Shown here: positions 38,607 to 63,174 of the stretch, piece by piece
Numbering within the stretch: the stretch's first letter is position 1
How the letters are laid out: each line of letters starts with the position of its first letter
DNA from: Eledone cirrhosa
Lineage: Eukaryota
Length of the DNA stretch: 64,000 bases
NCBI GenBank assembly: GCA_964016885.1
Contig: OZ024753.1
Coordinates: forward strand, 36,022,001-36,086,000
Direction of reading: 5' to 3'
Program-made: the position numbers and the translations under genes
The notes under the pieces: generated by a model
Database searches by the model: none
What the model was told of the DNA's origin: nothing
What the model saw: the letters and a program-made list of their open reading frames with translations, nothing else

Positions 38607-41600
38607 CAAAGGTATAACCATATATACAATGCTTGAAACATGTATAAGGAAATAAAAATATGGTTTTTTAAATGAAAGCCAATGAATTTTTCAGCCAAGC
38701 CTCGTAATGACTGAAATGAATAAAAGAGTAGAATGATTACCTGTATGGCATCTACAACAATGTCGACCCAGTAGACATCATGTGTTAGTATGTCAATAGC
38801 GATGTCATATGGCTTGCTGATGCCAGTGGAAACTAGTGTAGTGTGGTTAGAACCATCTAGCAGAGAACGTGATATCCTGCCTGGGTTGCGAGAAGACCAG
38901 TATAAATACCTAGAAAATATAAAGAAGAAGATGAAGAAGAAGAAAAAGAAGAAAAAGAAGAAAAAGAAGAAAAAGAAGAAAAAGAAGAAAGAAAAGAAGA
39001 AAAAAAAAGAAAAAAAAGAAAAAAGAAAAAAAAGAAAAAGAAAAAAAAAGAAAAAGAAAAAAGAAAAAAAAGAAAAAAGAAAAAAAAGAAAAAGAAAAGA
39101 AGAAGAAGAAGAAGAAGACGAAAAGAAGACGAAAAGAAGACGAAAAGAAGACGAAAAGAAGACGAAAAGAAGACGAAGAACAACAACAACATGAAGGTAA
39201 AGGACTAGTCCATCTAACAGTATTTAAAGAAATTAATTTAAGTTTTACCTTTTAATTGGATTAACAGCTATAGCTTGTGGCCAAATATTGGCATGTTGCC
39301 ATATTACCATTTGGTAGGAGCCATTGAGGCGGCATGCTATTAAATACTTCATATTATGCTTAATATTAAAAAAATAAATGTTGCCTGAAATAAATATAGA
39401 ATAAAGTTGAAATTAAAACCAAAACTGAGGAATTCTCTACAATGTTCCAAAATAATTGTTTCTACCCAGTGCATTACTGGTACTTTATTTTATCGACCCC
39501 CGTAAGGATGAAAGGCAAAGTTGACCTCGGCAGGATTTGAACTCAGAATGGAAAGGGCTGTAACTCTATGCGTCAAAGCATGGCGTCCGACCCTCTACCG
39601 ATACTGCCAATCCACCGTCCTTCAATGTTCCCAAATAATAATAATTATGAGTATTACTAGCAGAAAAACGACCCATTGGATGGTTTTCTGCTAGCCTGTG
39701 TAGTGTGTGTATTGATATTATACACAAGCATATATGCATGTAGATATGATACATCAAATAAAATCGTAATTGACAATATACACAGAAATTGAAGAGAGAC
39801 TGTGTTACACTGTCTTATGTAATCAGTAAAGTAATCCATGATACATTAAAAAAAAGACAATATTATATATAAACTGCATTAGGAGAAAAATTAGTGACGG
39901 GAATATATGAATGTTATTTAAGCGATCGCTAACCAGATGTGTTGACATTTGAAAATTTTAAAGAAGTGATTCTTAAAATAACCAACAAAATTATTTATAT
40001 TTAATCAAGAATAACGAAATTTAGTAGATAAATTATGTAATATTCCTTCATTATTTATTCAAACAATCTAACTTATTTTACAAATGGGATAAAAAAATAT
40101 ATTCTGGACACAGTCACGCACTCTATTATAGTTTAGATTAGTTTTCTTTTTTTGATAATGTCAACTTATGGACTGGACTTGATCTTTGCTCTTTAAGCCT
40201 AAAGATAGTAATATTTAAGCAATAGTAAATATAGAGTGATGTGAATGCTATGTGAGGTAAAGCCTTTACCATGAAAATGCAATAGTAAATATAGAGTGAT
40301 GTGAATGCTATGTGAGGTAAAGCCTTTACCTTGAAAATGCAATAGTAAATATAGAGTGATGTGAATGCTATGTGAGGTAAAGCCTTTACCATGAAAATGC
40401 AATAGTAAATATAGAGTGATGTGAATGCTATGTGAGGTAAAGCCTTTACCATGAAAATGCAATAGTAAATATAGAGTGATGTGAATGCTATGTGAGGTAA
40501 AGCCTTTACCATGAAAATGCAATAGTAAATATAGAGTGATGTGAATGCTATGTGAGGTAAAGCCTTTACCATGAAAATGCAATAGTAAATATAGAGTGAT
40601 GTGAATGCTATGTGAGGTAAAGCCTTTACCATGAAAATACAATAGTAAATATAGAGTGATGTGAATGCTATGTGAGGTAAAGCCTTTACCATGAAAATGC
40701 AATAGTAAATATAGAGTGATGTGAATGCTATATGAGGTAAAGCCTTTACCATGAGAATGCAATAGTAAATATAGAGTGATGTGAATGCTATGTGAGGTAA
40801 AGCCTTTACCATGAGAATGCAATAGTAAATATAGAGTGATGTGAATGCTATATGAGGTAAAGCCTTTACCATGAGAATGCAATAGTAAATATAGAGTGAT
40901 GTGAATGCTAAAGGGTTAAACTCTGTTGCTGGTCATCAAACTTTGTGGAGAAGAATATCTCATGTTGATGTGCAGTCTGCAACTGTTGGAGTTTAGCGTC
41001 ACAAGAAGAATTATTTTTTTTTGCAGTTCAATCATCTTGTACTACTACTATCTGTCATCTACCACTTCTGCTGCTGCTGCTACTACTACTACCACTTCTG
41101 CTGCTGCTGTTACTACTACTACTTCTGCTGCTGCTGCTGCTGCTACTACTACTACCACTTCTGCTGCTGCTGTTACTACTACTACTTCTGCTGCTGCTGC
41201 TGTTAATACTACTACTACTTCTGCTGCTGCTCGGGGTCTACCCCTTGGTCTACTGCTGGTTGGTTTTGCCCATAAAATCTGTCCAGCGAGTCTTGAGACA
41301 TTCTAACCATATATCCATAGTATCAAAGCTGTGATCTCTCAATTCAGAGATGTAGTGGCTCTACCTGGAGTGACTCTCTGATCTCCGATCTACAAGTCTG
41401 TCCAGCAATTATTTCCTGAGACATTCTAACCACCTGCTCATAGTATCAAAGCTGTGATCTCTCAATTCAGAGATGTAGTGGCTCTACCTGGAGTGACTCT
41501 CTGATCTCCGATCTACAAGTCTGTCCAGCAATTATTTCCTGAGACATTCTAACCACCTGCTCATAGTATTGGAACTGTGATCTCTCAATTTGGAGAAGTA

Positions 41601-42765
41601 GTGGCTCTACCTGGAGTGACTCTCTGATCTCTGATCTACAAGTCTGTCCAGCAATTATTTCCTGAGACATTCTAACCACCTGCTCATAGTATTGGAACGG
41701 TGATCTCTCAATTTGGAGAAGTAGTGGCTCTACCTGGAGTGACTCTCTGATCTCCGATCTACAAGTCTGTCCAGCAATTATTTCCTGAGACATTCTAACC
41801 ACCTGCTCATAGTATTGGAACTGTGATCTCTCAATTTAGAGAAGTAGTGGCTCTACCTGGAGTGACTCTCTGATCTCTGATCTACAAGTCTGTCCAGCAA
41901 TTATTTCCTGAGACATTCTAACCACCTGCTCATAGTATTGGAACTGTGATCTCTCAATTTGGAGAAGTAGTGGCTCTACCTGGAGTGACTCTCTGATCTC
42001 TGATCTACAAGTCTGTCCAGCAATTATTTCCTGAGACATTCTAACCACCTGCTCATAGTATTGGAACTGTGATCTCTCAATTTGGAGAAGTAGTGGCTCT
42101 ACCTGGAGTGACTCTCTGATCTACAAGTCTGTCCAGCAATTATTTCCTGAGACATTCTAACCACCTGCTCATAGTATTGGAACTGTGATCTCTCAATTTG
42201 GAGAAGTAGTAGCTCTACCTGGAGTGACTCTGATATGAGCTATGCACTTTATCGAGTAACGTTACTCCAAAGACCCTTCAGAGGAATTCCATTTTGGCCA
42301 CTTGTATTCTACATAAACAGATGACCCAGAAAAATATTGATAAAAGAAACTAAAACAACAAAAAAAAAGCTCTTACCAGCAATCCAGTCTATTGTAATAT
42401 CGGTTATGTAAAGAAATCCACCATCTTGTTGGACAACAGTCTCCAAACCCGTTCCATTTTGTCTGATTCGACGGAGTTCCTTTACTCCCCTATTAGAATT
42501 GAGATAGTAAATGTAGTTTTCCCGTACTAATACATCAATACCAGCATGACTGTTTTGGGCTGAAAGAGACAGAATGAACCATTAATGTATGACATACTAC
42601 TAGTAAACAAATATATATATACATAGATATATATACACACTCACAGACAGTCATACATGTATTTACAATTGTTTGTCTGTTGACATCGTCCATTTTCATA
42701 ATGTTATCTTTCAAATGTTCAGTACACACACACATATACATACACACACACAGAGAGAGACAGAC

Positions 42766-46500: not shown

Positions 46501-49500
46501 ACATAATATCGAGTCTACGATTTTTATATTTATTTTGAGAACAATACCTTAATGTTGGTATGAGTGGCTAGTTATAGATGGTTTGAACAGAAAGAGGAGA
46601 GAGAATTCTGGCCGGATATGACAGGTTTAAATGCTAAAGGGTTAAAAGTCCCAAATTTGTTTCAGCATTGCATCATAGGGTAAAGTATATGGATTTGACT
46701 CTTAACCCCTTGATCCCATAATGACTGAGATAAAAATAAAAATGCCAGGGTAGTTTGATAGTTAAGTTTCAAATCAAAATCATTCACAAATAAATCAATA
46801 ACACTGGTCAACACATATTTGGTGACTTAGGTTTTGTTTTGTTTTTAGCTAATTTTGAGGTGCTGATTTCAAATATGGCATCCATTTTTTTCCTATTTTG
46901 TTATGCATTGTATGAATAATATAATTTACTTAGGATGGATTACTAAGTCTTATAACTTGAAACCATAAGTTATAATGCCAATAGAATCTGATATGATAGA
47001 TGAAATATAAGATAACAATAGCTTTTATTAAATACATCTTGTTAATTCTCAAATAAAATGGATAAAACACAAACAATTGTACACTAACCAACATATTCAT
47101 GGAACAAATTTTTGCTTACGAGATCGCCTGGCATGTTTCATGTCTACACAGTCTCTTTGAATACTCCAACAGTGGTCTGTTATCATGTGTGTGTGTTCTA
47201 TCTACCTTGATATCTCTTAATCTATGATGATTTATTACAATACCATTTAGTTATTAAACCCATGGTAATTCATTGACAGCAAAACTGTTTTAAAAGCCCT
47301 TTGATATCAAACTGCCTGAAACCACCCCTGGTACAATGATAGGAAATTGCCTATTTTATCTAAAAAATCTTCCATCATAATTTCTTTTCTAAGAACCTTT
47401 AAGTTATGTTCCAAACACTAGAAAGTTACTTATATATCTAAATCCATGCAAATTCTTTATTATTTTCAAAATAATTTGAAAATTATATGTAGTATCTTTC
47501 ATTAGAAAGATGGTAACAAAAAGGTAAAAATTTAGATCTTATGAATTTTAAAATCAAAATTCATGTAACTGCATTGTTAGATCTGAATAACTTCAGAAAA
47601 CATTTACTTTGTCGTAAAAGTTGAAGATACTTCTGGACAAATATCAGAAGAGGAGAAACAAAAAACAAAAAAAGTATGCAAACCCTTTGCTTGGATCAAC
47701 ACAAAGAGATGTTGGATTTGAGATATCTGTTGGTTTTCCTGTGTTTGACAGAAGAGTTTTGTAAATGGGAAAATCACTGTCAATCTTCTTAACATATATG
47801 CCTTTTGATATTTTACTAGCCCAGAACAAATTTCTTGAAATCCAGTCAATAGCAAGTGAAGTTGGAGAACCTATAAATATCTCAGTTTTCCAAGATGTCT
47901 TGTTCAAGCCTGTTGTTGTAATTTCCTGTATTGTTCCCTGAAACTAGAAAATAAATTAGGTTAACCCTTTAACATTTACATTACTCTATATTTACTATTA
48001 TATTTTCATGGCAATAACTTTACCTCACACAATTATCTCACATAATATTGAATCTATGAGATTTTGATATTTATTTTTAGAACAATACCTTAACATCAGT
48101 ATGAATAGCTGGTTACAGCCGATTTGAACTGAAAGAGGTGAGAGAATTGTGGCCGGTTTAAATGCTAAAGGGTTAAATTGTAAAACTGCAAATGACATTG
48201 TTATAAAATTTTAAAGCTTTTGATCTAGGACTCCAGTTTAAAAATATCACCTTTCTTTTCCCCTTTTGCTTACCAGTTTAAATGTTAGAGCATTAATATT
48301 TTAAAATAAAAAAAAAAATGAAAAGTAGAAATATCTAAGAACATTAGTGAAATGTACATCGTCTTGTTACAGAGACCTATTGTGATGGAGGTGTGACTGA
48401 GATTATAGAAAACTAACTCATACAACAGAACATGAGGAAATATTTTTGTTTGGTAATGTGAGAAAGGGTAGATTTGACAACTCATATTGACATGGAGGGT
48501 GTACTTGAGATGACAAACAACTAACATGCACAAAGGAACATGAGGACATTTATTTTGTTTCATAACGTAAGAAAAAACAGATTTGTCAATTCATATTGGT
48601 ATGGAAGGTGTTCATGATTTTGTCATCCATCCTTCTGGGGGACATAAAATATAGTACCAGTTAAGTATTAAAAAAAAACATTTAATATTTAAAAATGATT
48701 ATCCTTATAAAATAAATCTAATAAAAAACATACTTTTTGGATGTAATATATAATACCAGTCTTGCTGTCATAGTCAAAATCTAATGTGTATTTCCTGTAA
48801 CTTATTGGAAGAAATGCACCGATTGCCGGAGGGGAATTTTCCAAACTGATGTGAAAAATGCCCAGTGCATAACTGTAAAGTAAGTATTCAGCATCATCTG
48901 CAATAGAAAATTAAAATTAAATAAATTTAACATTTGATCATCATCATCATCATTATCATCATCATCATTGTTTAACATCCATCTTCCACGCTAGCATGGG
49001 TTAGACGGGAGTTGTCCCACTTGAAGCAAGATTGGTCGGGTGACCATGTCTCGCTCGTATAGGACTATCTGGCAGGTTTTCTACAGTTGGATACCCTTCC
49101 TAACACCAACCACATTTACAATGTGGACTGGCAGCTTTTTACCGTGTTACCTACACGGCCACATTACAGCGTGGACTGTGATTTTTTTTTGTCGTAGACA
49201 CCTACACGATCTCATTAGTTTGGACTGGATGTTGTGGTACCAACATAACTTTATAGAGAGAGGGTGGTGTTGGCAGGAGTGGGAGGATGGAGTGGGGTAG
49301 TGGGTTTTGAGCTTATGAAAATTGAATTAGATGATTTCACTCTAAATTTGACTAAGTAAAATAGTGTAATAATAATAGTTTCATATATAGGCACAAGGCC
49401 AGCAATTTTGGGGGAGGGGAAAGTCGATTAAATCGACCCCAGTGCGTGACTGGTACTTTATTTTATCGACCTCGTAAGGATGAAAAAAAAAGTTAACCTC

Positions 49501-51876
49501 AGCAGGATTTGAACTCAGACCGTAAAGGTCCGTAACTCTATGCTGAAAAGTATGGTGTCCGACTCTCTACCAATATTGCCGCGGGGTATAGGCCCACAGA
49601 GCAGAAAAAGATGGGCATCAGCACAATGTCCAAAATAGATAAAGATCATGTGATTTGGGCATGTTAATGTTTCAGACCTTGAAGCAGTCATCAATGATAC
49701 TAATGGCAAATACATTAAGTAGATGCATCAAAAAGAGTCAAGATTTGTCAAGCCAATTTCTTTCTCAAAAAGATCTTTTCTCTTATAACTTATGCATCTT
49801 TTACTTAACCTCTTCAGTGCCGTGGACGAGATAACTCATCCTAATATGTTTGAACTCTTTTCCAGCAATTCATAACTTCAAAGGGGTTACTAGTTTATTG
49901 ATGTTTGTCAATCAATCATATATGAGTTGTTAATGAGTTGTTAATAAATGTTGGTTTAAAAAAAAAAAAATTTTTACTGAAAAAAAACACCGACACAGCA
50001 ACTATAGTTGTGTGAAATATACGTGGCAGTCAACAGGTTAATCCAGGTAAATGTCTTCAAAGAACTGAGCAGCCCTGTAGTTGATTGAATTGCTCTCTAT
50101 GTGTGACGAGTACATATCTGATTCACCTTTGGTGGGGCTGCAATATTTTAAAGAACCAAATTTTTTTACCACAATGTAGCTATGTGGTTAAGTACCTTGC
50201 ACAAAGACACTATATATTTCTTGTTCTGAGAATTGAACCTACAGTCTTATGATCATGAGCCTACCACTAACTGCTATGCCATGTGCCATGTATACTGGCA
50301 TATGTATAAGAAAGAAAAATGTTCATAGCCAAAAAATTGCATAATGTTTTGAGAATAAGTCATCTTACCAGAGTTATTTATCTCCTTGCCATTAACTTGA
50401 TATAAGTGTCCTTAATTTTCTTTCAAGGTTGCTTTGCTGAATTTTTCTAATTAGAATTTCATATCAATTCCTCTAGTAAATCCATGTACTGTTTGTAGCA
50501 GTGTTTCTAGAAATTGTCTGGTTGTCGGAGATCATAGATATTATGTGGAAGGGAACCATAAAAAAACATATGCCACAACCTTGTATAATCAACAACTTAT
50601 TAACACATGCCAGTATTTGTATAAGTATGTGTGTTTGTGTCTGTATGTGTGTCTCTGTGTGTGGTTGTGTGTGTATTTACGTCTGCGTGTGTTTGTGCAT
50701 GACATGTATGTTTGTGTTTGTGTCATTCTGTGTTTGTGTATGTGTGTTTCTGGATGCACATGTGCGTGCATATATATATATATATATATATATAATGTGT
50801 GTATATATATATATATATGTATACATATTCTTATAAATATATATACATATTCATATAAATATATATATAGTAGTAATAATAATATTTATACTTATATATG
50901 TTTAATATACAATTATAAATATGGAGGGTAGTACTAAGTACTAGCCAGTTACTGGTAGGATAAAAAGCTCAATGTAAATAATCAAGTGTATTACAGAGCC
51001 GAGATACAAAATATTAAAACAATCAAATCTTAGTTTAATACATTTATTTGCTGACAATTGTTTCTTCCAGAGGGATGTCTGGAATCATCAGAGCATAGAG
51101 AATGTTTAAACAGGTGATTAAAATCCTAGTCTTCAGAACATTTAGGTAGATACATAACTGTTGTCAGTGTAGTAGACATCTGACTCTTGCATTATATACC
51201 CCTAACATTACCTGATTTCCAATTCTATATCTTCTATCTATACTATCTTACATTTTTTTGCTTGTACCTTTTACACATGTATTACCTTAAACAATACCTT
51301 TATACATAATATGCTTATTTTTCAATTTTCACCATTGCTCCTTGTAATTGTGTTTTCTGAAGCATAACATTCTTTTTTAACTCCCGATTTTCTATATGAT
51401 GTCTACGACACTGGAAACAGTTATGTATCTACCTAAATGTTCTGAAGACTAGGATTTTAATCACCTGTTTAAACATTCTCTATGCTCTGATGATTCCAGA
51501 CAACCCTCTGGAAGAAACAATTGTCAGCAAAAAAAAGTATTAAACTAAGATTTGATTGTTTTAATATTTTGTATAAATATATATATATATATATTTTAAA
51601 AATAATATGTGTAAGTCAAACATGTTAAAGTTGGCTTCGTTTATTCTAATTCGCTGTTATATATATTTCAGTGACAGCCATTATTGGCTGTGACCTCATC
51701 AGGCAGTAAGAATTCAGGCAGAAAAAAGCAGGAAAACATGATGTAATGTGTTCTGCCCTGTTAATTCATCGATATCTCCAGCTTCTGGGTGTGTTGTTAG
51801 TCCTCATAGGAACTGGAAACAACCAACACATACTCAAAATGTATATATATTTTTATATATATCTATATTATGTGTG

Positions 51877-51932
<56 letters not shown>

Positions 51933-52517
51933 AACACACATGTATATATAATGAGTGTGTGTGTGTATATGTATATATATATATATATATAATGAGTGTG
52001 TGTGTGTATCATCATCATCATTTTACGTACGCTTTTCCCTGCTTGCAAGGGTGGGATGGGTCTTATTCAGCACAGCATCTCTCCACTCGTCACGGTCCCT
52101 CGTCATCTCCACCGTGAGCTTCAATGATCTGAGGTCTGTTCTCACCACCTCCGCCCATGTTTTTCGTGGTCTACCTCTACCACGTCTTCCTTCAACTGGC
52201 ATTTCCTGGCACTTCTTCACCCATAGGTCATCCTCCATGCGCATCACATGTCCATACCACCTCAGTCTCCTCTCCCGCACAATTCATTCTATCCCTCTCA
52301 GACACAGTTTCTCTCTCAACACATTTAAGCTGGGTCGTTCACGCACATTTACACTGCACATCCAACGGAGCATGCTTGCCTCATTTCTCTCCAGCCGTCG
52401 CATATCCTCTGCAGTTGCTGCCCATGTCTCACTACCATGCAGCATCGCACTCTTCACACAGGCATCATACAACCGGCCTTTCGTACGCAGGGAGAAACCC
52501 TTCTTCGTCAACAGAGG

Positions 52518-52580
<63 letters not shown>

Positions 52581-53419
52581 CTTATAATTAAAACATTTAA
52601 AAAATGTATTGATCTTGTTAGTTTATTTTATTTAAACCATGAAATTTCCAGGGTGTCAGCTAGTTAAGATGAATGCACAAATGAGTATTTTTTTTACTTA
52701 CCAGTAACGCACACCTCACTAGTTTGGCCTGGTTTCATTCCTACTGGACATTTACATTTATATCCTTTTGTTCCACGGGAGAGTAAGCAAAGATGGCTGC
52801 AAGGTTTACTGCTACAAGGATTGGTACCTATCACAAAAAATTACAAGTAATGGAATGGTTAATGCTGTTGGCATTAGGATGGGCATCTAGCGACAGAAAC
52901 CAAGCTAGAAACAGTTCTGAATGAGCAAGACATGTTCTTGACTCAAATAGGACATGACTTGACTTAAATGAGACAACTTGTTTAACCCTTTAGCATTTAA
53001 ATCGGCCAAATCTGGCCAGAATTCTTTCACCTCTTTCTGTTCAAAACGTTATGGTACTGTTTTCAAAATAAATAATATCAAAATCTCATAAATTCGACAC
53101 TATGTGAGATATTTACCGTGAAAATGAAATAGTAAATATAGAGTAATGAAAATGCTAGAGTTAACCCTTTAGCATTTAAATTGACTTTATCTGGCCAGAA
53201 TTCTCTCACCTTTTTCTGTTCAAACCAGCTGTAACTGGCCACTCATATTGATATTAAGGTATTGTTCTCAAAATAAATAATATCAAAATCTCATAGATTC
53301 AATATTATGTGAGGTAAAGCCTTTATCGCGAAAGTAAAATAGTAAATGTAGAGTAATGTAAATGCTAGCGTGGTAAATAGACATTAAAGAATGATGATGA
53401 TGATAATAAATACATAATA

Positions 53420-53453
<34 letters not shown>

Positions 53454-56400
53454 CATCATTATGTAACATCCATTTTCCCTGCTAGCAAAGGTTACAAATA
53501 GCAACTTAATAATGAAACAAATAGTAATTTTAGTAAATCCCTCCACATTCTTAATGAATGAACTCGTAACTATGCCATGAAGCATGTTGTCTGGCACTTT
53601 AACAATTGTTTCTACTTTTGGCTCAAGGCCAGCAATTATCCCATTGTATTACAGGCGCTTTGCAGCAAAGAGTTACGGCCCTTTATGGTCTGAGTTCAAA
53701 TCCCAATACTGCCAAATAATTGTTTCTACTTTAGACACAACGTCAGCAATTTGAATAGGTGGGGGAAAGTCGATTAAATCGATACCAGTGTATTACTGGT
53801 GCTTTATTTTATCGACCCTGTAAGGATGAAAGGCTAAGCTAACCTTGGTGGTATTTGAACTCAGAACGTAAAGGTCCATAACTCTATGCTGCAAAGCATG
53901 GCGTCCGACCCTCTACCGATTCGATAACTATGTAAGTTGTAAATAATGTGGCATGGAGAATGCTAAAGAAGAAAGAAACTCACTTGTTGGCTGACGGACT
54001 TGATGATAGCTGATAATATTCAGACATTGTGGGAAGGAATTACTGATTATCTTCGTGGTGTCACAATGAAACTTGTTACATCCAAACACTAAATAAGAGC
54101 GATGGCTTTGCCAATAAATCATATCTTCGAATATGGTTATGCCAAATGGATAATAGATATACTGAATAAAATGTAGAGGAGGGGAAAAAAAAGAAAAAAA
54201 AGAAAAAAAAGAAAAAAAAGAAGAAATTTACTTATCATGTCTGTCATGAAAAATAATTTTTAATAAACTTCTAGTCTACAATAATTATTTCTAGTTTTGG
54301 CACAAGACCAGCAATTACCCCAGTGTATTACTGGTGCTTTATTTTATCGACCCTGTAAGAACATAAAGGACCATAACTCTATGCTGCAAGAGAGTTGTTG
54401 TTGTTGTAAATATACATAAATAGATAACTCTAGATTTTAATGTGAGTGTGTGTCTGTGAAACACATACATATACAGGTCTGAACACAAAGGAACCAAACT
54501 CCCACTGTCACTGTCTTTGTCTCTCCTGATCTTCCCATCTCTCACTATTATGAGCAAATGGGGGCCCATGCGCTGTCTGCCCTGTGACCCCAGCGGACAG
54601 AATAGAGAAGGTGTTTCCCTGGAGGATAGTGAAGGAGATGCACTGGAAGAGCTATTCCAGCTTGCGAGGCTCACACCTGCAGGTAGCCAACTCTGTGCCG
54701 ATGGTGGTGAGTAGGGAGGTGGTCCTAGGGCCAAGGACACCAGAGGTCTCCACTGCTACAGGTAGTCAACTCTGTGCTGATCGTGGTGAGTAGGGAGGTG
54801 GTCCTAGGGCCAAGGACACCAGAGGTCTCCACTGCTACAGGTAGTCAACTCTGTGCTGATCGTGGTGAGTAGGGAGGTGGACCTAGGGCCAAGGACACCA
54901 GATGTCTCCACTGCTACAGGTAGTCAACTCTGTGCTGATCGTGGTGAGTAGGGAGGTGGTCCTAGGGCCAAGGACACCAGATGTCTCCACTGCTACAGGT
55001 AGTCAACTCTGTGCTGATCGTGGGGAGTAGGGAGGTGGCTCTAAGGCCAAGGACACCAGAGGTCTCCCCTGCTATGGGCTCAACCTCAAACCTGTTGGAA
55101 AACGACCGATATTTAGAGAGATTACTCTCCTTGGCCTGAAGTGCAGCAGAGCCTAGGCTAGTCGCAGACTGCACCAGGTTGCTGCTGCTTGTTATCAAGC
55201 TTTGGTTCAACAATAACATCCAACAGACTTATGATCAAATGTATTCCAGTCATGACTATCACATTTGTATTGGCATATAGAAGGATTATATCATGTTATG
55301 GGATTTTAAATCAGAAGGGTGGGATTTAAAGGAGGTTTGCCTGTTATGTTGAACAAGTAGAGGATCTTGTTTGCCCATTTCTGTATATATCAATATAGTT
55401 AAGATATGCAAAGAAATTCTTAATGATTTGAAATTTTCCTCTTAGTTGGAGAAAGAATTCAAAACCCTGGAAGCATTTGTTATGCACAGGTATGTCAAAC
55501 TGAGGGTATACTGAGGGTCACTTGGGTCACATATGTGTTGTCTGAGGGCCACACGACAACTAATTGTGTACATTACACCTAATTTTGTTATTTTATATCA
55601 CAAAGATAAAACATGCTTGCACAGTAAAAACCTTTGTGGGGGCCGCAGGTGTGCTTGTAAAGGGCCGCATGTAGGCTGCGGGCTGCATGTTTAACATGCC
55701 TGGTTATACACATATACAACCGCACATACAGATACACATATGCGTCAGTGTGTTCGCAAAAAATTCTTGTATAAAAGAATACACAACTTACGTGATCATT
55801 AGCAAGAACCAATCTCCTACCACTACCATCATATTTACAAAAACTGATTGAGTTCAAACGTCTATCAATGAAATAAAGTCTTTTGTTTGGATAGTCTATT
55901 GTGAGACCAGACACCTGTAATATTCTTGTGGATATTATAACCATTCTGTTTTCTCCATCAAGATCCATACGTTCAATACGTGAATTACTTTCCCAGTCTG
56001 CCCAAAACATGTAGCGAATGCTGAAATATTTTCGAAAGCAAGATAATTAAATCTGACCCAACATATCCCAGCATAGAAAAGTTGACTTAAAAACAATGAT
56101 GATGAACTTGACAAAACAATTTAACCCTTTAGCATTTATATTACTCTATATATACTATTTTATTTTCATGGTAAAGACTTTATCTTACATAACTATCTCA
56201 CATAATATTGAATCTAAGAGATTTTGATATTAATTATTTTGAGAACAATACCTTAATGTCAGAACAAGTGGCCAGTTATGGACGGTTAAAACTGATTTGG
56301 ACAAAAAGAGGTGAGAGAATTCTGACCAGATACCGCCGGTTTGAACAGGAAGAGGTGAATAAATTCTGGTTGGATACAGCTGGTTTAAATGCTAAAGGGT

Positions 56401-59400
56401 TAAACCTGGATTATCAATCAATGACCTTGAAACGTTTATAAGAGATTTGCTACAAATAAAGATACAAATAATAACTTACCCTTCACGTGGATCAAGTACA
56501 AGGCCACTTGGAATGGTAATATTTTTATTGGTCAGAATGATTCTATGGTTACCGTCAAGGTCTGATATTTCAATTGTATCCAGTGAACTGTCTGTCCAAT
56601 ATAGATTGCGGCCAATCCAATCTACTGCAAGGCCCATGACACTTCCCACTCCTGAATGGATAACCTTTATATTAAAAATAAGTAAAAGTTTAAAGTTCAT
56701 AGCTAATATTGTACAATTATCAAGTACTAGGATTTTTTAAAACATGCTGACGCGTATGTGTATATATGTGTGGTAGCAGCCTGTGTCAGACGTAAAGAGA
56801 GAGTAGTAGTATGAGTCATAATAACAGTGGTAGCAGCCTGCATCAGACGTAAAGAGAGAGTAGTAGTATGAGAGTCATAATAACAGTGGTAGCATCCTGC
56901 ATCAGACGTAAAGAGAGAGTAGTAGTATGAGAGTCATAATAACAGTGGTAGCAGCCTGTGTCAGACGTAAAGAGAGAGTAGTAGTATGAGAGTCATAATA
57001 ACAGTGGTAGCAGCCTGTATCAGACGTAAAGAGAGAGTAGTAGTATGAGAGTCATAATAACAGTGGTAGCAGCCTGCATCAGACGTAAAGAGAGAGTAGT
57101 AGTATGAGTCATAATAACAGTGGTAGCAGCCTGCATCAGACGTAAAGAGAGAGTAGTAGTATGAGAGTCATAATAACAGTGGTAGCATCCTGCATCAGAC
57201 GTAAAGAGAGAGTAGTAGTATGAGAGTCATAATAACAGTGGTAGCAGCCTGCATCAGACGTAAAGAGAGAGTAGTAGTATGAGAGTCATAATAACAGTGG
57301 TAGCAGCCTGCATCAGACGTAAAGAGAGAGTAGTAGTATGAGAGTCATAATAACAATGGTAGCAGCCTGCATCAGATGTAAAGAGAGAGGACTAGTATGA
57401 GATAGTCATAACAGTGGTAGCAGCCTGCATCAGTGAATGTTAGACACAGTTTTCTGTAGTTTGTCGTCACCCCTTCTTTCCTCAGTCATCTCTAGTGTGT
57501 GATGGAAGGATGGAGGGAAGTCACACAAATTTATATATAGATGATATGATAAAGCTATATGGATTGAAAAACTGAAGAAGAACCCTAGAAAAACTTTACT
57601 AAATATATGTAAAATCTTACTGTTGCTTTATGTTAAAAATAATAAATAAATGTTTAAATTTCATAGATAAAGTATATTATAAATTGTTTCTATTTTAGGC
57701 ACAAGGCCAGCAATTACCCAGTGCATTACTGGTACTTTATTTTATCAACCCCGTAAAGATGAAAGGCAAAGTCAACCTCGGCGAGATTTGAAATCAGATC
57801 GTAAAGGGACGTAACTATGCTGGAAAGCATGGCATCCGACCCTCCACCGATACTGCCAATCCACCGCCCTGTATATTATAAATAAGAGCTGTTTACCTGT
57901 CTGTCTGTCACACATATGTAGAAATGAGAGGAGATGGGAGATAACTTATCTCCTGCTTATAGATTATTGCAAACTTAAGAATCATCAAGGGTGAGAGGTA
58001 ATGATGGAAAGAGCTGTTGGAAGGGGGTGCCTTGTTCTTGTATTATACTATATATATGAATAATTGTTTCTACTTTTGGCACAAGGCCAGTAATTACCCA
58101 GTGCGTTACTGGTACTTTATTTTATCGACCCCGTAAGGATGAAAGGCAAAGTTTACCTCGGTGGGATTTGAACTCAGACGATAAAGGACTGTAACTCTAT
58201 GCTGCAAAGCATGGTGTCCAACTCTCTACCGATACTGCCAATCTAACACCACTATATATATATGAATAATGTTGCACAATTTCTCTTTTGTACCATAATG
58301 TGTAATATCTATGTATCTATGTATTTATATATGTATGGTCCCGTAACTCCTGATGGAGTTGTAGGGGCACCGTATTGACATACAGCGTTTCTTGGGTATT
58401 TAAAGCCCGGCGGAGCCCTTCCCTCTCCAGGCCTGAGTACAGCAGATTTCTTCCAGAGGAAGATAGACAGTGAGAGAGAGAAGAAATGAGAAAAAGATAT
58501 AGAGGAAGAATCGATCCAGGTATTAGACTGGTACTTTTTTTATCGACCTTGAAAGGATGAATGGCAAAGTTGACCTCGGCGGGATTTGAACTCAGAGAGT
58601 AGAGAGCTGGAACGAATTCCATAAACCATTCTATCCGATGTTCTAATGACTCTGCCAATTTGCCACCTGTAATATCTATATGAATTAATTAACAGGATGA
58701 AAATCCAAAGAAAAAAAGAATTAAAAAAATTACAAGATAAATATAAATTCTTACAGATTTTATTGATGGAGATGAGGTACCAGTTTTAATTCTGTAAATT
58801 TTGCGTATGAAAAAGTCAGACAGATAGATAGATTGGGTAGTGATGTCAATGGCAACAGCTACTAGATAGTGGCTATTATCAACAGGGATTTCACTGTATT
58901 CTTGTAAATCAAGGCTGGAGTTGTAAAGAGAATGCCGAGCAACAATCATCAAAGAAGCCCTCGTAGAATCTGCAGAAAATGATAAAAAATATCAAAAACA
59001 AAATGAAAACAACCGGAAAGTGTTAGGGACTCTTCAATATCAAATATATACATAATATATGGTGGCTGCCAACTCGTTTTCGAGTACGGCCACTACTTTA
59101 TATCCATGTAGGAGAACCCCTACCGATGCGCTGAACGAGTGTGACTTTTTAGTCCAGCCAGCGACTTGAAAACTCTGGTACAAACACTACACTTGTGACA
59201 ATTATTGACACATAGTGCTGGGCCTATGGTACCATGTGACGACAAGTGCAGAGAGATCTCCAGATATAAAGCAATGCCTGTGCCGTGAAGCTTTTATAGT
59301 GAGCAAAGGCACTGCACAAAGCCAGTCCCACTCTCTTAACCAAGATGATATTTACCAAAAAGAAGAACAAGTCAACATTATTGGATACCATCAGGGTATC

Positions 59401-62400
59401 ACATAATATATATATACATACATACATACATTATACATACACACTTAATAGAAAAAGATGGGACATTAGCACTAGTCCAATAACAGGGTATATAAACCCA
59501 CTGATGCCCCTCTTTTTCCATTCAGTGGGTTTTTATACTCTATTATTATTAATCCTTTAGCATTTAAACCGGCCGTATCCGGCCAGAATTCTCTCACCTC
59601 CTCTTTCTGTTCAAACTAGACATAACCAGTCGCTCATACTGATGTTAAGGTATTTTTCTCAAAATAAATAATATCAAAATCTCATAGATTCGATATTATG
59701 TGAGATATTATGTGAGGTAAAGACTTTATCGTAGAAATATAATAGTAAATATAGAGTAATGTAAATGCTAAAGGGTTAAACTATTTCATTTAATCAAAGT
59801 TATGGCAAAATCTTTTTATTCAACTTTCAAACTCTGCTTGCAGTTTTCTAAACATACATTCTTTGATTACTAATAATATATTTTTATCTTAGAAAAAACA
59901 AACTATAGAATGTAAACTTTAATAAATAGAAAAGAAATTTCGTCCTCACTATCAATAACGTGACATTGAGTTTTTTCCAGGTAATAACCAGCTTCACATT
60001 CACATTTGAAAGAACCTTCGAGATCTGTGCATTTTTGACTGCAGGCTCCAGGAGGGTCACATTCATTAAAATCTGCATAGAAATTAAAATAATATAAAAT
60101 TATTACTCAACATTTTACTAAGGGAAATCTTTAGTAAGGGAAATTCCCCCACACTACTGAGAAGTCAGGCAGGATGGTGACCTAGTGTCCTGTAACACAC
60201 ATACATGGCCCTAGTCCATTGAGACATCAGACAGGGCAGTGTCCCAGGGTCCCATAACTTACACACATACATGGCCCTAGTCTATTGAGAGATCAGACAG
60301 GGAAGTGTCCCAGGGTCCCATAACTTACACACATACATGGCCCTAGTCCATTGAGAGATCAGACAGGGCAGTGTCCCAGGGTCCCATAACTTACACACAT
60401 ACATGACCCTAGTCCATTGAGACATCAGACAGGGCAGTGTCCCAGGGTCCCATAACTTACACACATACATGGCCCTAGTCTATTGAGAGATCAGACAGGG
60501 CAGTGTCCCTGGGTTCCATAACTTACACACATACATGGCCCTAGTCCATTGAGAGATCAGACAGGGCAGTGTCCCAGGGTCCCATAACTTACACACATAC
60601 ATGACCCTAGTCCATTGAGAGATCAGACAGGGCAGTGTCCCAGGGTCCCATAACTTACACACATACATGACCCTAGTCCATTGAGAGATCAGACAGGGCA
60701 GTGTCCCAGGGTCCCATAACTTACACACATACATGACCCTAGTCCATTGAGAGATCAGACAGGGCAGTGTCCCAGGGTCCCATAACTTACACACATACAT
60801 GGCCCTAGTCTATTGAGAGATCAGACAGGGCAGTGTCCCTGGGTTCCATAACTTACACACATACATGACCCTAGTCCATTGAGAGATCAGACAGGGCAGT
60901 GTCCCAGGGTCCCATAACTTACACACATACATGACCCTAGTCCATTGAGAGATCAGACAGGGCAGTGTCCCAGGGTCCCATAACTTACACACATACATGG
61001 CCCTAGTCTATTGAGAGATCAGACAGGGCAGTGTCCCTGGGTTCCATAACTTACACACATACATGACCCTAGTCCATTGAGAGATCAGACAGGGCAGTGT
61101 CCCAGGGTCCCATAACTTACACACATACATGGCCCTAGTCCATTGAGAGATCAGACAGGGCAGTGTCCCAGGGTCCCATAACTTACACACATACATGACC
61201 CTAGTCCATTGAGAGATCAGACAGGGCAATGTCCCAGGGTCCCATAACTTACACACATACATGACCCTAGTCCATTGAGAGATCAGACAGGGCAGTGTCC
61301 CAGGGTCCCATAACTTACACACATACATGGCCCTAGTCTATTGAGAGATCAGACAGGGCAGTGTCCCTGGGTTCCATAACTTACACACATACATGACCCT
61401 AGTCCATTGAGAGATCAGACAGGGCAGTGTCCCAGGGTTCCATAACTTACACACATACATGACCCTAGTCCATTGAGAGATCAGACAGGGCAGTGTCCCA
61501 GGGTCCCATAACTTACACACATACATGACCCTAGTCCATTGAGAGATCAGACAGGGCAGTGTCCCAGGGTCCCATAACTTACACACATACATGACCCTAG
61601 TCCATTGAGAGATCAGACAGGGCAGTGTCCCAGGGTCCCATAACTTACACACATACATGACCCTAGTCCATTGAGAGATCAGACAGGGCAGTGTCCCAGG
61701 GTCCCATAACTTACACACATACATGACCCTAGTCCATTGAGAGATCAGACAGGGCAGTGTCCCAGGGTCCCATAACTTACACACATACATGACCCTAGTC
61801 CATTGAGAGATCAGACAGGGCAGTGTCCCAGGGTCCCATAACTTACACACATACATGACCCTAGTCCATTGAGAGATCAGACAGGGCAGTGTACCAGGGT
61901 CCCATAACTTACACACATACATGGCCCTAGTCCATTGAGAGATCTGACAGGGCAGTGTACCAGGGTCCCATAACTTACACACATACATGGCCCTAGTCCA
62001 TTGAGAGATCAGACAGGGCAGTGTCCCAGGGTCCCATAACTTACACACATACATAACCCTAGTCCATTGAGAGATCTGACAGGGCAGTGTACCAGGGTCC
62101 CATAACTTACACACATACATGGCCCTAGTCTATTGAGAGATCAGACAGGGCAGTGTCCCAGGGTCCCATAACTTACACACATACATGGCCCAAGTCCATT
62201 GAGACATCAGACAGGGCAGTGTCCCAGGGTCCCATAACTTACACACATACATGACCCTAGTCCATTGAGAGATCTGACAGGGCAGTGTCCCAGGGTCCCA
62301 TAACTTACACACATACATGTCCCTAGTCCATTGAGAGATCAGACAGGGAAGTGTCCCTGGGTTCCATAACTTACACACATACATGACCCTAGTCCATTGA

Positions 62401-63174
62401 GAGATCAGACAGGGCAGTGTCCCAGGGTCCCATAACTTACACACATACATGACCCTAGTCCATTGAGAGATCTGACAGGGCAGTGTACCAGGGTCCCATA
62501 ACTTACACACATACATGGCCCTAGTCTATTGAGAGATCAGACAGGGCAGTGTCCCAGGGTCCCATAACTTACACACATACATGGCCCTAGTCCATTGAGA
62601 CATCAGACAGGGCAGTGTCCCAGGGTCCCATAACTTACACACATACATGACCCTAGTCCATTGAGAGATCTGACAGGGCAGTGTACCAGGGTCCCATAAC
62701 TTACACACATACATGACCCTAGTCCATTGAGAGATCTGACAGGGCAGTGTACCAGGGTCCCATAACTTACACACATACATGGCCCTAGTCTATTGAGAGA
62801 TCAGACAGGGCAGTGTCCCTGGGTTCCATAACTTACACACATACATGACCCTAGTCCATTGAGAGATCTGACAGGGCAGTGTACCAGGGTCCCATAACTT
62901 ACACACATACATGACCCTAGTCCATTGAGAGATCAGACAGGGCAGTGTCCCAGGGTCCCATAACTTACACACATACATGACCCTAGGCTACTGGTGCTAT
63001 ATTTTGAAGAGAATTAAACTCTACATAAATATTGAGATTAAAATGACATCTTACCCTCACAAGTACCATTACGAGTTAATATCTGGCCCATTGGACAATA
63101 GCATTGTGCTCCAAATGGTGTCTGGAGACATCTGTATATACAGCCACCATTATTATACCGACAAGAATTAGAAT
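995..63174 (-). CDS. LRP2: LRP2/megalin-like endocytic receptor, internal part (35 exons, ~1,829 aa; gene extends beyond both window ends)
   Basis: Spliced reading gives EGF-cbEGF, 4x(YWTD propeller+EGF), 10 LDLa, EGF-cbEGF. This layout fits LRP1 or LRP2. Segments [21 protein letters not shown] and [24 protein letters not shown] match my recollection of megalin rather than LRP1. All introns are GT-AG with consistent phases. Confidence 0.88.
1155..1610. repeat. degenerate CA-rich repeat
   Basis: acacatgcacacaa-like units. Confidence 0.9.
2266..2391 (-). CDS. LRP2: window exon 34, EGF-like
   Basis: [31 protein letters not shown]. Confidence 0.93.
2642..3530. repeat. 12-bp minisatellite (AGGAAGTGTGTT)n
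   Basis: Direct inspection. Confidence 0.97.
3593..3683 (+). ncRNA. hammerhead-like motif with long stem II
   Basis: acatat-CTGAGGA-(~60 nt)-GAAA-catatg-TA-atatgt; 6-bp stem I, palindromic stem III; truncated sister copy at ~19115-19203. Confidence 0.62.
3975..4760 (+). mobile_element. 3' fragment of an RLE-type LINE (R4/Dong-like)
   Basis: CCHC knuckle ([11 protein letters not shown]), RHD, RPD..ID and K..KY restriction-like endonuclease motifs; frameshifted. Confidence 0.8.
4768..4960 (-). mobile_element. tRNA-derived SINE family A (representative of ~17 copies)
   Basis: A box TGGCAGTATCGG, B box GAGTTCAAATCC, ATT tail, TSDs. Other copies near 731, 9200, 21031, 32694, 33853, 34027, 38247, 39451, 44665, 44843, 49370, 53716, 54281, 57682, 58059, 63236. 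Confidence 0.88.
4987..5109 (-). CDS. LRP2: window exon 33, LDLa 10
   Basis: [30 protein letters not shown]. Confidence 0.93.
5452..5509 (-). ncRNA. hammerhead-like motif
   Basis: atac-CTGATGA-tatcaccgg..ctggtcatt-GAAA-tgatca-TA-gtat; stem II base imperfect. Confidence 0.6.
5702..5857. mobile_element. Tc1/Tigger-like MITE inside (TA)n
   Basis: cagtgaaattttgttataacg .. ttataacaaattttacct inverted ends. Confidence 0.6.
6460..6582 (-). CDS. LRP2: window exon 32, LDLa 9
   Basis: [32 protein letters not shown]. Confidence 0.93.
6931..7185 (-). CDS. LRP2: window exon 31, LDLa 7-8
   Basis: [13 protein letters not shown] and [13 protein letters not shown]. Confidence 0.93.
7240..8117 (+). mobile_element. 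non-autonomous Helitron
   Basis: A|TC start (tctgtatatataaaa), subterminal hairpin cctgtgcaacgccggg, CTAG|T end, no TSD. Confidence 0.75.
8686..9166. repeat. 13-bp minisatellite (ATTATGTGAGATA)n inside a piggyBac-like MITE
   Basis: Flanks continue the MITE sequence. Confidence 0.92.
9449..9574 (-). CDS. LRP2: window exon 30, LDLa 6
   Basis: [32 protein letters not shown]. Confidence 0.93.
9686..10040 (-). mobile_element. RTE LINE fragment
   Basis: [31 protein letters not shown]. Confidence 0.82.
10373..10471 (-). CDS. LRP2: window exon 29, LDLa 5
   Basis: [30 protein letters not shown]. Confidence 0.92.
10740..11500. repeat. 84-bp minisatellite
   Basis: ~6 homogeneous plus ~3 diverged units. 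Confidence 0.92.
11550..11699 (-). CDS. LRP2: window exon 28, LDLa 4
   Basis: [29 protein letters not shown]. Confidence 0.92.
12000..13890. repeat. 31-bp minisatellite inside a hAT-like MITE
   Basis: gtgacccatgtggccctcagacaacacatat units. Confidence 0.95.
14095..14625 (-). mobile_element. CR1-clade LINE 3' end with duplicated 3'UTR and (ATT)n tails
   Basis: [25 protein letters not shown] motif. Confidence 0.8.
14863..14985 (-). CDS. LRP2: window exon 27, LDLa 3
   Basis: [28 protein letters not shown]. Confidence 0.92.
15118..17725. repeat. 45-bp minisatellite, apparently RTE-ORF-derived
   Basis: [15 protein letters not shown] unit runs into an RTE-like C-terminus at 17725-17965. Confidence 0.92.
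18283..18399 (-). CDS. LRP2: window exon 26, LDLa 2
   Basis: [24 protein letters not shown]. Confidence 0.93.
18565..19020 (+). mobile_element. RTE LINE 3' fragment, short-tail subfamily
   Basis: Homologous to 52008-52518; other pieces at 5190-5362 (-), 25345-25480 (+), 37990-38187 (-). Confidence 0.85.
19736..19987 (-). CDS. LRP2: window exon 25, EGF + LDLa 1
   Basis: [39 protein letters not shown]. Confidence 0.93.
20051..20210 (+). mobile_element. tRNA-derived SINE family B (representative)
   Basis: tggcttagtggttag..gagttcaattc..ccttgagcaagacactt; copies at ~1690-1880 (-), 8131-8320 (+), 43350-43495 (-), 50190-50285 (-). Confidence 0.75.
20573..20680 (-). CDS. LRP2: window exon 24, end of propeller D
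   Basis: [14 protein letters not shown]; weaker acceptor (cataaag), phase 1-1. Confidence 0.82.
21764..23985 (+). mobile_element. 5'-truncated near-intact RTE-clade LINE
   Basis: Frame starts at the APE end motif GSDH, has one TAG at 21850, then RT motifs ([32 protein letters not shown]); (TAGA)n tail starts at the stop; TSD tatatccac at 21755-21763 and 23986-23994. Confidence 0.92.
21970..23976 (+). CDS. LINE reverse transcriptase ORF (668 aa, endonuclease truncated)
   Basis: ORF track; complete set of non-LTR RT motifs. Confidence 0.85.
   Translation: MTRRYGHFTNAVAKASETLVPRKKNKGKHVSSANPKVCAAREHLKAARDQFYADPTEERMETVEVMREELCTAYTEVREEALIEKIRSVERAVDRSGCKESWMIINEITGRKKRCSSQIQGTGPEDRKRKWLDHFRTLLGEPPSTAQSTGEIRRLFEELDVETEPFTREELQRAKKKIKEGKAHGEDGVASEVMKRCDFDDIILGFCNGALEKGVAPNQWRISNIVPVPKKGDLSNTNNYRGISLTSLVAKTLNRMILNRIQPEMEKKLRDNQNGFREGRSTTSHILMLRRILEGARAKCLPAVMVFIDFRKAFDSVDRYCLMKILQAYGIPKRMVDLISLLYTNTKAQVITPDGMTEFFEILAGVLQGDTLAPYLFIIVVDYCMRLALEKHQDSGFTVAPAQSRRVGAKKVSDAEFADDIVLVTNTVKEAEDLMREVETVSMSVGLRMNETKTKYLVENVEKPEGITNVGGKPLELVEDFLYLGAKIGNTEDDVVERKCKAWAACHSLRSVWKSDLRRDLKVRLFIAVVESVLLYGSETWTLTKKLTQMVDGCYTRMLRMALNFNQYTLRMKNSELYGSIPKVSSKVTQRRLRLTGHAHRHPELTLHSVLLWEPLHGHTRRGRPRLTYVDALRTDTGLLEMQDMAAIMRDRDRWRELVYGSREFYPP
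25775..28025 (-). repeat. 8 tandem copies of the 3' end of exon 23 plus donor, spaced by (GAT)n(GT)n
   Basis: Unit gtcagattagtttggttaacttacc..ggggtgct matches 28028-28118. Confidence 0.93.
27053..27921 (-). mobile_element. RTE LINE 3' fragment with long 3' region and (GAT)n tail
   Basis: [31 protein letters not shown]; related pieces at 19204-19610 (+), 37461-37953 (+), 48937-49300 (-). Confidence 0.85.
28052..28173 (-). CDS. LRP2: window exon 23, propeller D
   Basis: [24 protein letters not shown]; phase 2-1. Confidence 0.9.
28240..28762. repeat. GGT/GAT low-complexity repeat
   Basis: Fills the intron between exons 22 and 23. Confidence 0.9.
28770..28934 (-). CDS. LRP2: window exon 22, propeller D
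   Basis: [30 protein letters not shown]; phase 2-2. Confidence 0.92.
28985..29742. repeat. 32/29-bp G-rich minisatellite
   Basis: agagtggtgatgggtgagaggggtgtggttat. Confidence 0.92.
29838..30145. repeat. 48-bp minisatellite
   Basis: cacccagtacactctgtaaagtg.. units; similar motif in reverse at ~43290-43323. Confidence 0.88.
30208..32097. repeat. 33/31-bp minisatellite
   Basis: gactgtgaccacgatgggacagtgtcttcatta. Confidence 0.95.
32362..32521 (-). CDS. LRP2: window exon 21, propeller D
   Basis: [22 protein letters not shown]; phase 1-2. Confidence 0.92.
33197..33436 (-). CDS. LRP2: window exon 20, start of propeller D
   Basis: [20 protein letters not shown]; phase 1-1. Confidence 0.9.
34193..34385. 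mobile_element. mariner-like MITE
   Basis: aaaagtttacaggctgac / gtcaacctatgaactttt inverted termini. Confidence 0.5.
34453..34581 (-). CDS. LRP2: window exon 19, EGF-like
   Basis: [25 protein letters not shown]; phase 1-1. Confidence 0.92.
35787..35895 (-). CDS. LRP2: window exon 18, end of propeller C
   Basis: [20 protein letters not shown]; phase 0-1. Confidence 0.9.
36000..36180 (+). mobile_element. degenerate RTE LINE fragment
   Basis: [22 protein letters not shown]. Confidence 0.6.
36261..36374 (-). CDS. LRP2: window exon 17, propeller C (frame absent from the ORF track)
   Basis: [38 protein letters not shown]; tag|..|gtttg, phase 0-0; supplies the otherwise missing blade. Confidence 0.9.
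37097..37171 (+). ncRNA. hammerhead-like motif with branched stem II
   Basis: tatttcat-CTGATGA-..-GAAA-ccttgg-GTA-atggaata; 8-bp stem I with one G.U. Confidence 0.55.
38741..38909 (-). CDS. LRP2: window exon 16, propeller C
   Basis: [21 protein letters not shown]; phase 2-0. Confidence 0.92.
38921..39190. repeat. GAA/GAAAAA polypurine tract (similar tract at 32200-32340)
   Basis: Direct inspection. Confidence 0.9.
39249..39384 (-). CDS. LRP2: window exon 15, propeller C
   Basis: [22 protein letters not shown]; phase 1-2. Confidence 0.9.
40205..40919. repeat. 60-bp minisatellite made from the piggyBac-like MITE right end
   Basis: ~12 units ending in the intact TIR aatgctaaagggttaa. Confidence 0.93.
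41230..42310 (-). repeat. 123-bp minisatellite inside an RTE LINE fragment
   Basis: [24 protein letters not shown] unit; flanks read [14 protein letters not shown] and RPRGRPR. Confidence 0.88.
42377..42559 (-). CDS. LRP2: window exon 14, propeller C
   Basis: [19 protein letters not shown]; phase 1-1. Confidence 0.9.
43926..44027 (-). CDS. LRP2: window exon 13, start of propeller C
   Basis: [29 protein letters not shown]; phase 1-1. Confidence 0.88.
44113..44152 (+). ncRNA. minimal hammerhead motif in a ~190-bp dispersed repeat (degenerate copies at 1902-1943 and 36465-36503)
   Basis: tca-CTGATGA-t-gtcaca(gtta)tgtgac-GAAA-gaac-TC-tga; flanks shared among the three loci. Confidence 0.6.
44456..44584 (-). 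CDS. LRP2: window exon 12, EGF-like
   Basis: [28 protein letters not shown]; phase 1-1. Confidence 0.92.
45067..45292 (-). CDS. LRP2: window exon 11, end of propeller B
   Basis: [17 protein letters not shown]; phase 0-1. Confidence 0.9.
46014..46188 (-). CDS. LRP2: window exon 10, propeller B
   Basis: [24 protein letters not shown]; phase 2-0. Confidence 0.92.
47684..47937 (-). CDS. LRP2: window exon 9, propeller B
   Basis: [26 protein letters not shown]; phase 0-2. Confidence 0.9.
48734..48897 (-). CDS. LRP2: window exon 8, start of propeller B
   Basis: [23 protein letters not shown]; phase 1-0. Confidence 0.88.
51049..51095 (-). ncRNA. type I hammerhead ribozyme motif (inverted copy, sense to LRP2)
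   Basis: Reverse complement of 51483-51529 with one stem II loop change. Confidence 0.85.
51483..51529 (+). ncRNA. type I hammerhead ribozyme motif (minimal, palindromic stem III)
   Basis: tgct-CTGATGA-ttccaga(caaccc)tctggaa-GAAA-caattg-TC-agca: complete core, stems I and II perfectly paired, GUC cleavage triplet. Confidence 0.85.
51654..51706 (-). ncRNA. hammerhead-like motif, different family
   Basis: ctgc-CTGATGA-ggtcacagcca(ataa)tggctgtcact-GAAA-tatata-TA-acag; one mismatch at the base of stem I. Confidence 0.65.
52008..52518 (-). mobile_element. RTE LINE 3' fragment, short-tail subfamily
   Basis: [29 protein letters not shown], (GAT)n tail. Confidence 0.88.
52702..52827 (-). CDS. LRP2: window exon 7, EGF-like
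   Basis: [28 protein letters not shown]; phase 1-1. Confidence 0.92.
53984..54161 (-). CDS. LRP2: window exon 6, end of propeller A
   Basis: [21 protein letters not shown]; phase 0-1. Confidence 0.92.
54570..55200 (-). mobile_element. CRE-like RLE LINE 3' fragment with internal 79-bp tandem expansion
   Basis: [34 protein letters not shown]; ~5 copies of the 79-bp unit at ~54675-55075. Confidence 0.7.
55487..55702. mobile_element. hAT-like MITE, unexpanded parent of the 31-bp satellite
   Basis: TIR caggtatgtcaaac..gtttaacatgcctg; homologous in reverse to 11900-13915. Confidence 0.72.
55792..56020 (-). CDS. LRP2: window exon 5, YWTD propeller A
   Basis: [22 protein letters not shown]; phase 2-0. 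Confidence 0.92.
56480..56664 (-). CDS. LRP2: window exon 4, YWTD propeller A
   Basis: [24 protein letters not shown]; phase 0-2. Confidence 0.92.
56770..57432. repeat. ~59-bp minisatellite
   Basis: gtggtagcagcctgcatcagacgtaaagagagagtagtagtatgagagtcataataaca. Confidence 0.93.
58755..58969 (-). CDS. LRP2: window exon 3, YWTD propeller A
   Basis: [17 protein letters not shown]; cag|..|gtaag, phase 1-0. Confidence 0.9.
59551..59779 (+). mobile_element. TTAA-flanked piggyBac-like MITE (representative)
   Basis: TIR CCCTTTAGCATTTA..TAAATGCTAAAGGG with TTAA; copies near 18029, 35158, 46270-46645, 47961, 52982-53390, 56122. Confidence 0.82.
59950..60072 (-). CDS. LRP2: window exon 2, Ca-binding EGF
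   Basis: [31 protein letters not shown]; cag|..|gtgag. Confidence 0.92.
60195..62985. repeat. 66-bp minisatellite (~42 units)
   Basis: ccctagtccattgagagatcagacagggcagtgtcccagggtcccataacttacacacatacatga. Confidence 0.96.
63055..63174 (-). CDS. LRP2: window exon 1, EGF-like
   Basis: [39 protein letters not shown]; aag|..|gtaag, phase 1-1. Confidence 0.9.

Follow-up and report, generated by a model that had tools for sequence, protein, structure and literature searches.

The inverted repeat and its host intron

The window, by which we mean the whole analysed stretch of 64 kb, carries along its minus strand the exons of an LDL-receptor-related gene, placed by homology. In one of these exons the part of greatest similarity corresponds to residues 1567-1641 of LRP2 structures, and LRP1 is not among the matches listed; judged by such similarity of sequence, the host gene is LRP2-like, with LRP2 and LRP1/1B not told apart by the matches. 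Two of the exons, both defined by homology and compatible in phase, flank a GT-AG intron of 3804 nt (48898-52701, minus strand), and it is in this intron that the inverted repeat described here is situated, its distance being 1127 nt to the donor and 2106 nt to the acceptor. An earlier note on this DNA, made from the letters alone, had already placed it within an LRP2 intron, and a position in an intron of an LRP2-like gene is supported by the exon homology. Along the host pre-mRNA one meets an antisense arm first, then the spacer, and then the left arm with a ribozyme motif in sense orientation.

The repeat has two arms, 51004-51180 and 51398-51574, of 177 nt each, which are 97% complementary and are separated by 217 nt, in full agreement with the arms of about 177 bp and the spacer of about 217 bp first reported. 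Six differences distinguish the arms over their 177 nt, positions 51046 and 51042 being among them. The window holds 94 inverted pairs of at least 60 nt; the present one has the smallest spacing of all and is the only one located entirely within the host intron. We read the right arm (51398-51574, plus strand) as the 3' end of a longer copy of a repeated element, and the spacer (51181-51397, plus strand) as the T-rich, non-coding body of that copy, 5'-truncated at 51181. The left arm (51004-51180, minus strand, sense to the host pre-mRNA) would then be an inverted copy of the same 3' end, more strongly 5'-truncated. The arms of the earlier note stand, and its left limit at 51004 does not, since family pieces crossing this position show that the element continues to about 50915-50923 as a one-sided 3' extension of the left copy, a tail of about 80-90 nt (50915-51003, minus strand, outer end at 50915-50923). 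A counterpart of this tail is missing beyond the right arm. A coding role of spacer or arms was rejected, as no stop-free frame in them exceeds 53 aa.

Both ends of the element face outwards into TA-rich DNA. A (TA)n run (51577-51594), the likely target site, adjoins the right end, and the left end also adjoins TA-rich sequence. The unit is flanked by a direct repeat of 9 nt (50914-50922 on the left and 51572-51580 on the right, plus strand), a candidate target-site duplication, to be weighed against a control in which 12 of 181 AT-rich 40-mers taken from the window also gave a 9-nt match to the right-end zone; its left copy is covered by the family-read alignments. The joint between the left arm and the spacer (51180/51181) forms a weak hairpin when folded alone (-4.9 kcal/mol as DNA), and a strong palindrome is absent from it. 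Just 3' of the left-arm ribozyme motif there is an AATAAA hexamer (51043-51048, minus strand), with a run of A at the equivalent place in the right arm; it is a possible intronic polyadenylation signal, and a duplex between the arms would hide it too. A fold-back artefact of long reads is an unlikely source of the structure: the arms differ at six sites, a spacer of 217 nt parts them, and family reads favour the left-arm letters at 51414-51415; the joint itself did not appear in a second, independent sample.

Other repeats also populate the window. A frame of 672 aa (21958-23976, plus strand), intronic and antisense to the gene, contains a reverse transcriptase domain (PF00078, E 3e-33); by its sequence it looks like a LINE, which we take to be RTE-like. 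Long minisatellite arrays in introns appear as repetitive open frames at 2586-3568, 15107-17734, 23977-25198, 30354-31057, 40138-40932, 41467-42120 and 60480-62525. Two diverged tandem repeat copies, about 180-210 nt apart, occupy 52982-53371 and recur in inverted orientation at 47959-48177 and 56114-56405. A scan for bacterial promoters gave results at chance level and is not meaningful for this DNA.

Minimal hammerhead motifs in both arms

Read outwards, each arm has the parts of a type I hammerhead: stem I (4 bp), CUGAUGA, stem II (7 bp, with a loop of 6 nt), GAA, a palindromic stem III of 8 nt and the site GUC. The left-arm motif covers 51049-51095 (minus strand; C3 at 51091, predicted cut between 51053 and 51052) and the right-arm motif 51483-51529 (plus strand; C3 at 51487, predicted cut after 51525); both are minimal type I hammerheads of 47 nt, on opposite strands and 396 bp apart. 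The motif is present in both arms because it sits near the 3' end of the element. A scan of the 64 kb with a minimal-hammerhead descriptor returned two matches, exactly these two, with the CUGAUGA, GAAA and GUC elements, the 4-bp and 7-bp stems and the palindromic stem III that the earlier note had recognised. In 100 block-wise dinucleotide shuffles of the window the same descriptor gave 0.01 matches per window, and none of the 100 contained anything as good. A looser descriptor returned four matches in the window, where 0.34 were expected. The two motifs follow the type I order with the core CUGANGA, GAAA and NUH, and their helices of 4 bp, 7 bp and an 8-nt palindrome fall within the pattern of Penelope minimal hammerheads, that is, helix I of 4-5 bp, helix II of 7-8 bp and a short palindromic helix III.

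The earlier description of these hammerheads as perfect goes too far, since pair 10.1-11.1 is U-A instead of G-C and no unpaired base follows A9. A U10.1-A11.1 pair lowers hammerhead activity. The G10.1-C11.1 pair and the extra base after A9 belong to the consensus of Penelope minimal hammerheads given in PMC4209133, as consensus features that stand outside the published search descriptor. Loose-end consensi at 51071 (from 4 and 6 contigs, with agreement below 0.7) suggest that the base of helix II is the same in relatives. At 51090 the commonest read letter turns U4 into C (among 40 of 348 variant rows), so the core position U4 varies among relatives. Rfam, to which the earlier note had looked for confirmation, provided none: no curated hammerhead model matched in the whole window at the gathering score, nor in 50900-51700 at E<=10. 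Three weak snoRNA matches from the Rfam scan were dismissed, being far under their cut-offs.

Penelope hammerheads are said to cleave as dimers, as Lunse et al. reportedly found in 2017. For the free monomer of the motif, folding predicts a preference for another structure (-12.1 kcal/mol, against -8.0 kcal/mol for the ribozyme). A lone minimal hammerhead gave no detectable cleavage in vitro in the work described in PMC4209133. Both hammerheads of the locus are predicted to be inactive passengers.

Two further candidates should be mentioned as separate observations. At 51660-51706 (minus strand, C3 at 51702) there is a hammerhead-like motif with a TA-palindrome as stem III, which belongs to a different repeat family, is sense to the host pre-mRNA and is unmasked; in this copy stem I has lost its first pair, and position 51657 is unlike most reads. 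A mixed dimer of this motif with one of the arm ribozymes was rejected, the stem III palindromes being different. At 37098-37171 (plus strand, C3 at 37106) a hammerhead candidate has an 8-bp stem I, a non-palindromic stem III of four pairs and a stem II region of 38 nt with two small hairpins; its predicted minimum-energy fold differs from the hammerhead.

A dispersed repeat family and the probable origin of the mirror image

Reads from four of six listed runs (X1 and X2 coming from one sample, X4 and X5 from RAD-seq) were matched to 50400-52200 at 80% likeness. The summed contig depth of X1, a rough guide that gives no copy number and to which related families sharing the 3' end may contribute, amounts to 11.6 on the single-copy flank and to 768-958 across the spacer; each inner arm reaches about 1,400, the left-arm ribozyme (51071-51131) 13,594 and the left-arm 3' end (51010-51070) 71,424. 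Depth climbs toward the 3' end, as in 5'-truncated retroelements. On the same rough scale, the family of the 51702 motif is far more abundant, with a summed X1 depth of about 170,000.

The order of the parts can be followed in individual pieces, of which 16 were listed, the longest plus some at the joints, out of about 23,000. Five of the 16 bridge the spacer and the right arm, and none bridges the joint of the left arm and the spacer at 51180/51181, a zero that relates to a short list. In two pieces (records 5 and 12) the alignment reaches 51181 and 51187, beyond which they have 29 and 91 further letters that do not belong to the left arm. Three others (records 2, 10 and 11) cross 51004 with at least 31 letters on either side and carry the family sequence to 50937, 50915 and 50954; they are paralogous, each having 13-20 other letters. 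Compared with the window, the family pieces on the list show about 6-13 differing letters per 100. The locus is one copy of a dispersed repeat family with 5' truncation. From the five bridges on the right against none on the left, together with family sequence running beyond the spacer start, it follows that spacer to right arm is the natural order, cut at 51181, and that the left copy is a shorter piece in inverted orientation, whose 3' side is longer by about 80-90 nt. Two pattern scans of metagenome contigs for copies of the family returned no loci, and exact matching of five motifs of 12-13 nt found none of them in the Naiad, Chlamys and Hydra consensus files of PMC8557442, where line breaks can hide hits.

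By analogy with described elements, the locus is likely a truncated insertion for which a Penelope-like enzyme was responsible; the element 3' end is present in two pieces that lie back to back and carry ribozymes predicted to be inactive passengers. The Penelope-like link already drawn in the earlier note gains support from the head-to-head architecture, the helix pattern, the one-sided tail and the AT-rich target. It rests on architecture because no RT or GIY-YIG frame linked to the element was found at this locus. It would be logical to suggest the following course of events. A Penelope-like enzyme would cleave an intronic (TA)n stretch, and both DNA ends would prime reverse transcription on the element RNA, at start points about 80-90 nt apart. 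This RNA may have had its source either in an autonomous element or in a retrozyme-like derivative without coding capacity. The longer product would measure 394 nt (from 51574 back to 51181) and the shorter one about 260 nt (from about 50920 to 51180), and the joining of the two cDNA products would create the 51180/51181 joint. The 177 nt common to both products would become the arms; what the longer product alone contains would become the spacer, and what was reached from the outer start point alone would become the tail. A simple fold-back of the first cDNA is disfavoured because it would meet the host (TA)n and not the family tail, and also because the hairpin at the joint is weak. The right copy may also have been trimmed later and so have lost a tail of its own.

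An inverted 5'-truncated copy beside the 5' end is described as frequent in Penelope-like elements in PMC8557442, together with a tail of 30-40 bp at one end and a preference for (TA)n, and the same source names the integration mode of these elements as unresolved. PMC3846280 reports an inverted pLTR of 181 bp, truncated members between inverted pLTRs of 212 bp and duplications of 8-10 bp, and favours self-priming on an antisense template, an alternative to the two-ended priming suggested above. According to PMC11167929, a Penelope protein cleaves both strands and extends them, two start sites bound the tail, and the ribozyme requires the protein for cleavage. Penelope families of Octopus vulgaris are listed in PMC13282606, whose main text leaves ribozymes unmentioned.

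The same Penelope-type family could also have produced the mirror image otherwise, either through two insertions into one (TA)n site or through a local inverted duplication during repair. Such sites gather elements of this sort, another abundant family has its hammerhead-like motif about 130 nt further to the right, and there are six differences between the arms. The arms are nevertheless 97% alike, when family pieces differ from the window at the rate given above, and therefore point to one template or a very close one. Moreover, (TA)n is absent between the arms, and the tail is left unexplained if the right copy was duplicated, unless that copy lost its own later. We consider an origin of this kind improbable.

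The 571-nt unit may also be regarded as a MITE-like element, bounded by long terminal inverted repeats and mobile as a whole, and its long inverted arms, short non-coding spacer and TA-rich flanks would suit this description. The ends are asymmetric, however, because family sequence passes the left end and the left joint is unbridged: the pieces that bridge the right joint (5 of 16) have no counterpart at the left one (0 of 16, on the same short list), and the family runs past the supposed left terminus by 80-90 nt and also beyond the spacer start. This makes a MITE-like unit improbable, and we retain the truncated Penelope-type insertion as the reading of the locus.

Predicted masking of the ribozymes and relation to known systems

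Transcription of either strand yields a ribozyme preceded by its own antisense copy, as the earlier note had pointed out, and folding predicts that the ribozyme is masked by it. When the 601-nt region was folded on both strands, the probability of the ribozyme stems was 0.0 and 98% of the hammerhead motif paired with the far arm; forcing the ribozyme stems open in the full hairpin costs 77-78 kcal/mol. The arms are predicted to pair from about 30 nt of the second arm, well ahead of the transcription of the ribozyme. Such masking is automatic, because the ordinary head-to-head layout produces it. For the host pre-mRNA this modelling predicts, as a side effect, a long duplex of the two arms, which would conceal the ribozyme and would be a substrate of ADAR. 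Long near-perfect duplexes are the main targets of hyper-editing, notably in octopus (PMC5625713), and by analogy an editing of the arm duplex is plausible. Fossilised A-to-G editing was rejected, as one of the six arm differences is A/G.

We may even suggest that the back-to-back layout acts as a built-in safety catch, in which the antisense arm zips over the ribozyme and the AATAAA hexamer, and unmasked intronic copies are purged. The broken unmasked motif at 51702, set against the masked intact pair of the arms, fits a purging of active sense ribozymes in what are two cases only. The suggestion is a long shot, and it stays alive at low odds because Xenopus introns contain fewer retrozymes than expected (bioRxiv 10.64898/2026.07.22.740005). 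Were it true, inverted Penelope insertions would be a self-neutralising route of ribozyme parasites into genes and, in cephalopods, a source of ADAR substrates. If masked copies prove to be favoured in introns genome-wide, this would explain the tolerance of ribozyme-bearing elements in genes.

The earlier note went further and saw in the hairpin a functional self-silencing cassette; that the host retains it for regulating the LRP2-like pre-mRNA through masked cleavage and recruitment of ADAR we hold to be very unlikely. An antisense arm that is transcribed first on either strand and pairs early, the hyper-editing of such duplexes in octopus and the intact hammerhead cores of both arms speak for it, but the claim is left unsupported: masking comes from the layout, one ribozyme per strand makes a dimer impossible in cis, the single minimal hammerhead remained uncleaved in the published in vitro test, editing of core adenosines would be expected to disable a ribozyme and not release it, the repeat is more than 1 kb from either splice site, and finding 0 of 6 changes within 41 constrained nt is expected by chance (P=0.20), with no sign of selection. 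Little needs silencing, because there is no cis dimer and a single minimal hammerhead is uncleaved.

Among known systems, twin priming of L1 is related by its two-ended priming: both ends of the target prime reverse transcription, and the 5' part becomes inverted, without duplication. The present locus differs in that 177 nt are present twice. Animal non-LTR retrozymes (PMC7229834; bioRxiv 10.64898/2026.07.22.740005) resemble it in being non-coding, low in GC, equipped with a type I hammerhead and related to Penelope, whereas here the ribozyme is minimal instead of canonical and the locus has no head-to-tail tandem, no direct repeat of the unit being present in 49000-54000 or in the whole window.

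Related too are the minimal hammerheads of metazoan Penelope elements described by Cervera and de la Pena (2014; PMC4209133), with helix II of 7-8 bp and helix I of 4-5 bp. The motifs of both arms share with them type I topology, a helix I of 4 bp, a helix II of 7 bp and a palindromic helix III. Pairs on opposite strands are reported there at about 100-700 bp from each other, a range that includes our 396 bp. The present hammerheads depart from them in having U10.1-A11.1 for G-C and no unpaired base between 9 and 10.1.

The locus also resembles inverted truncated Penelope-like insertions (PMC3846280, PMC8557442), which are also arranged head-to-head with the 3' ends outward and an inverted copy of about 180 bp, extend at one end, and enter AT-rich or (TA)n targets; the candidate duplication of 9 bp compares with the published 8-10 bp. 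At our locus, in distinction from them, the ORF is lost, the tail measures about 80-90 nt instead of the published 30-40, the spacer of 217 nt is unshared and the joint is without a strong palindrome. The head-to-head arrangement is already known in print, and the longer tail is the sole departure in layout. As one more truncated and inverted Penelope-type insertion the single locus matters little; as a data point on integration it has a modest value, since a one-sided family tail fits two-ended priming at two start sites better than a fold-back.
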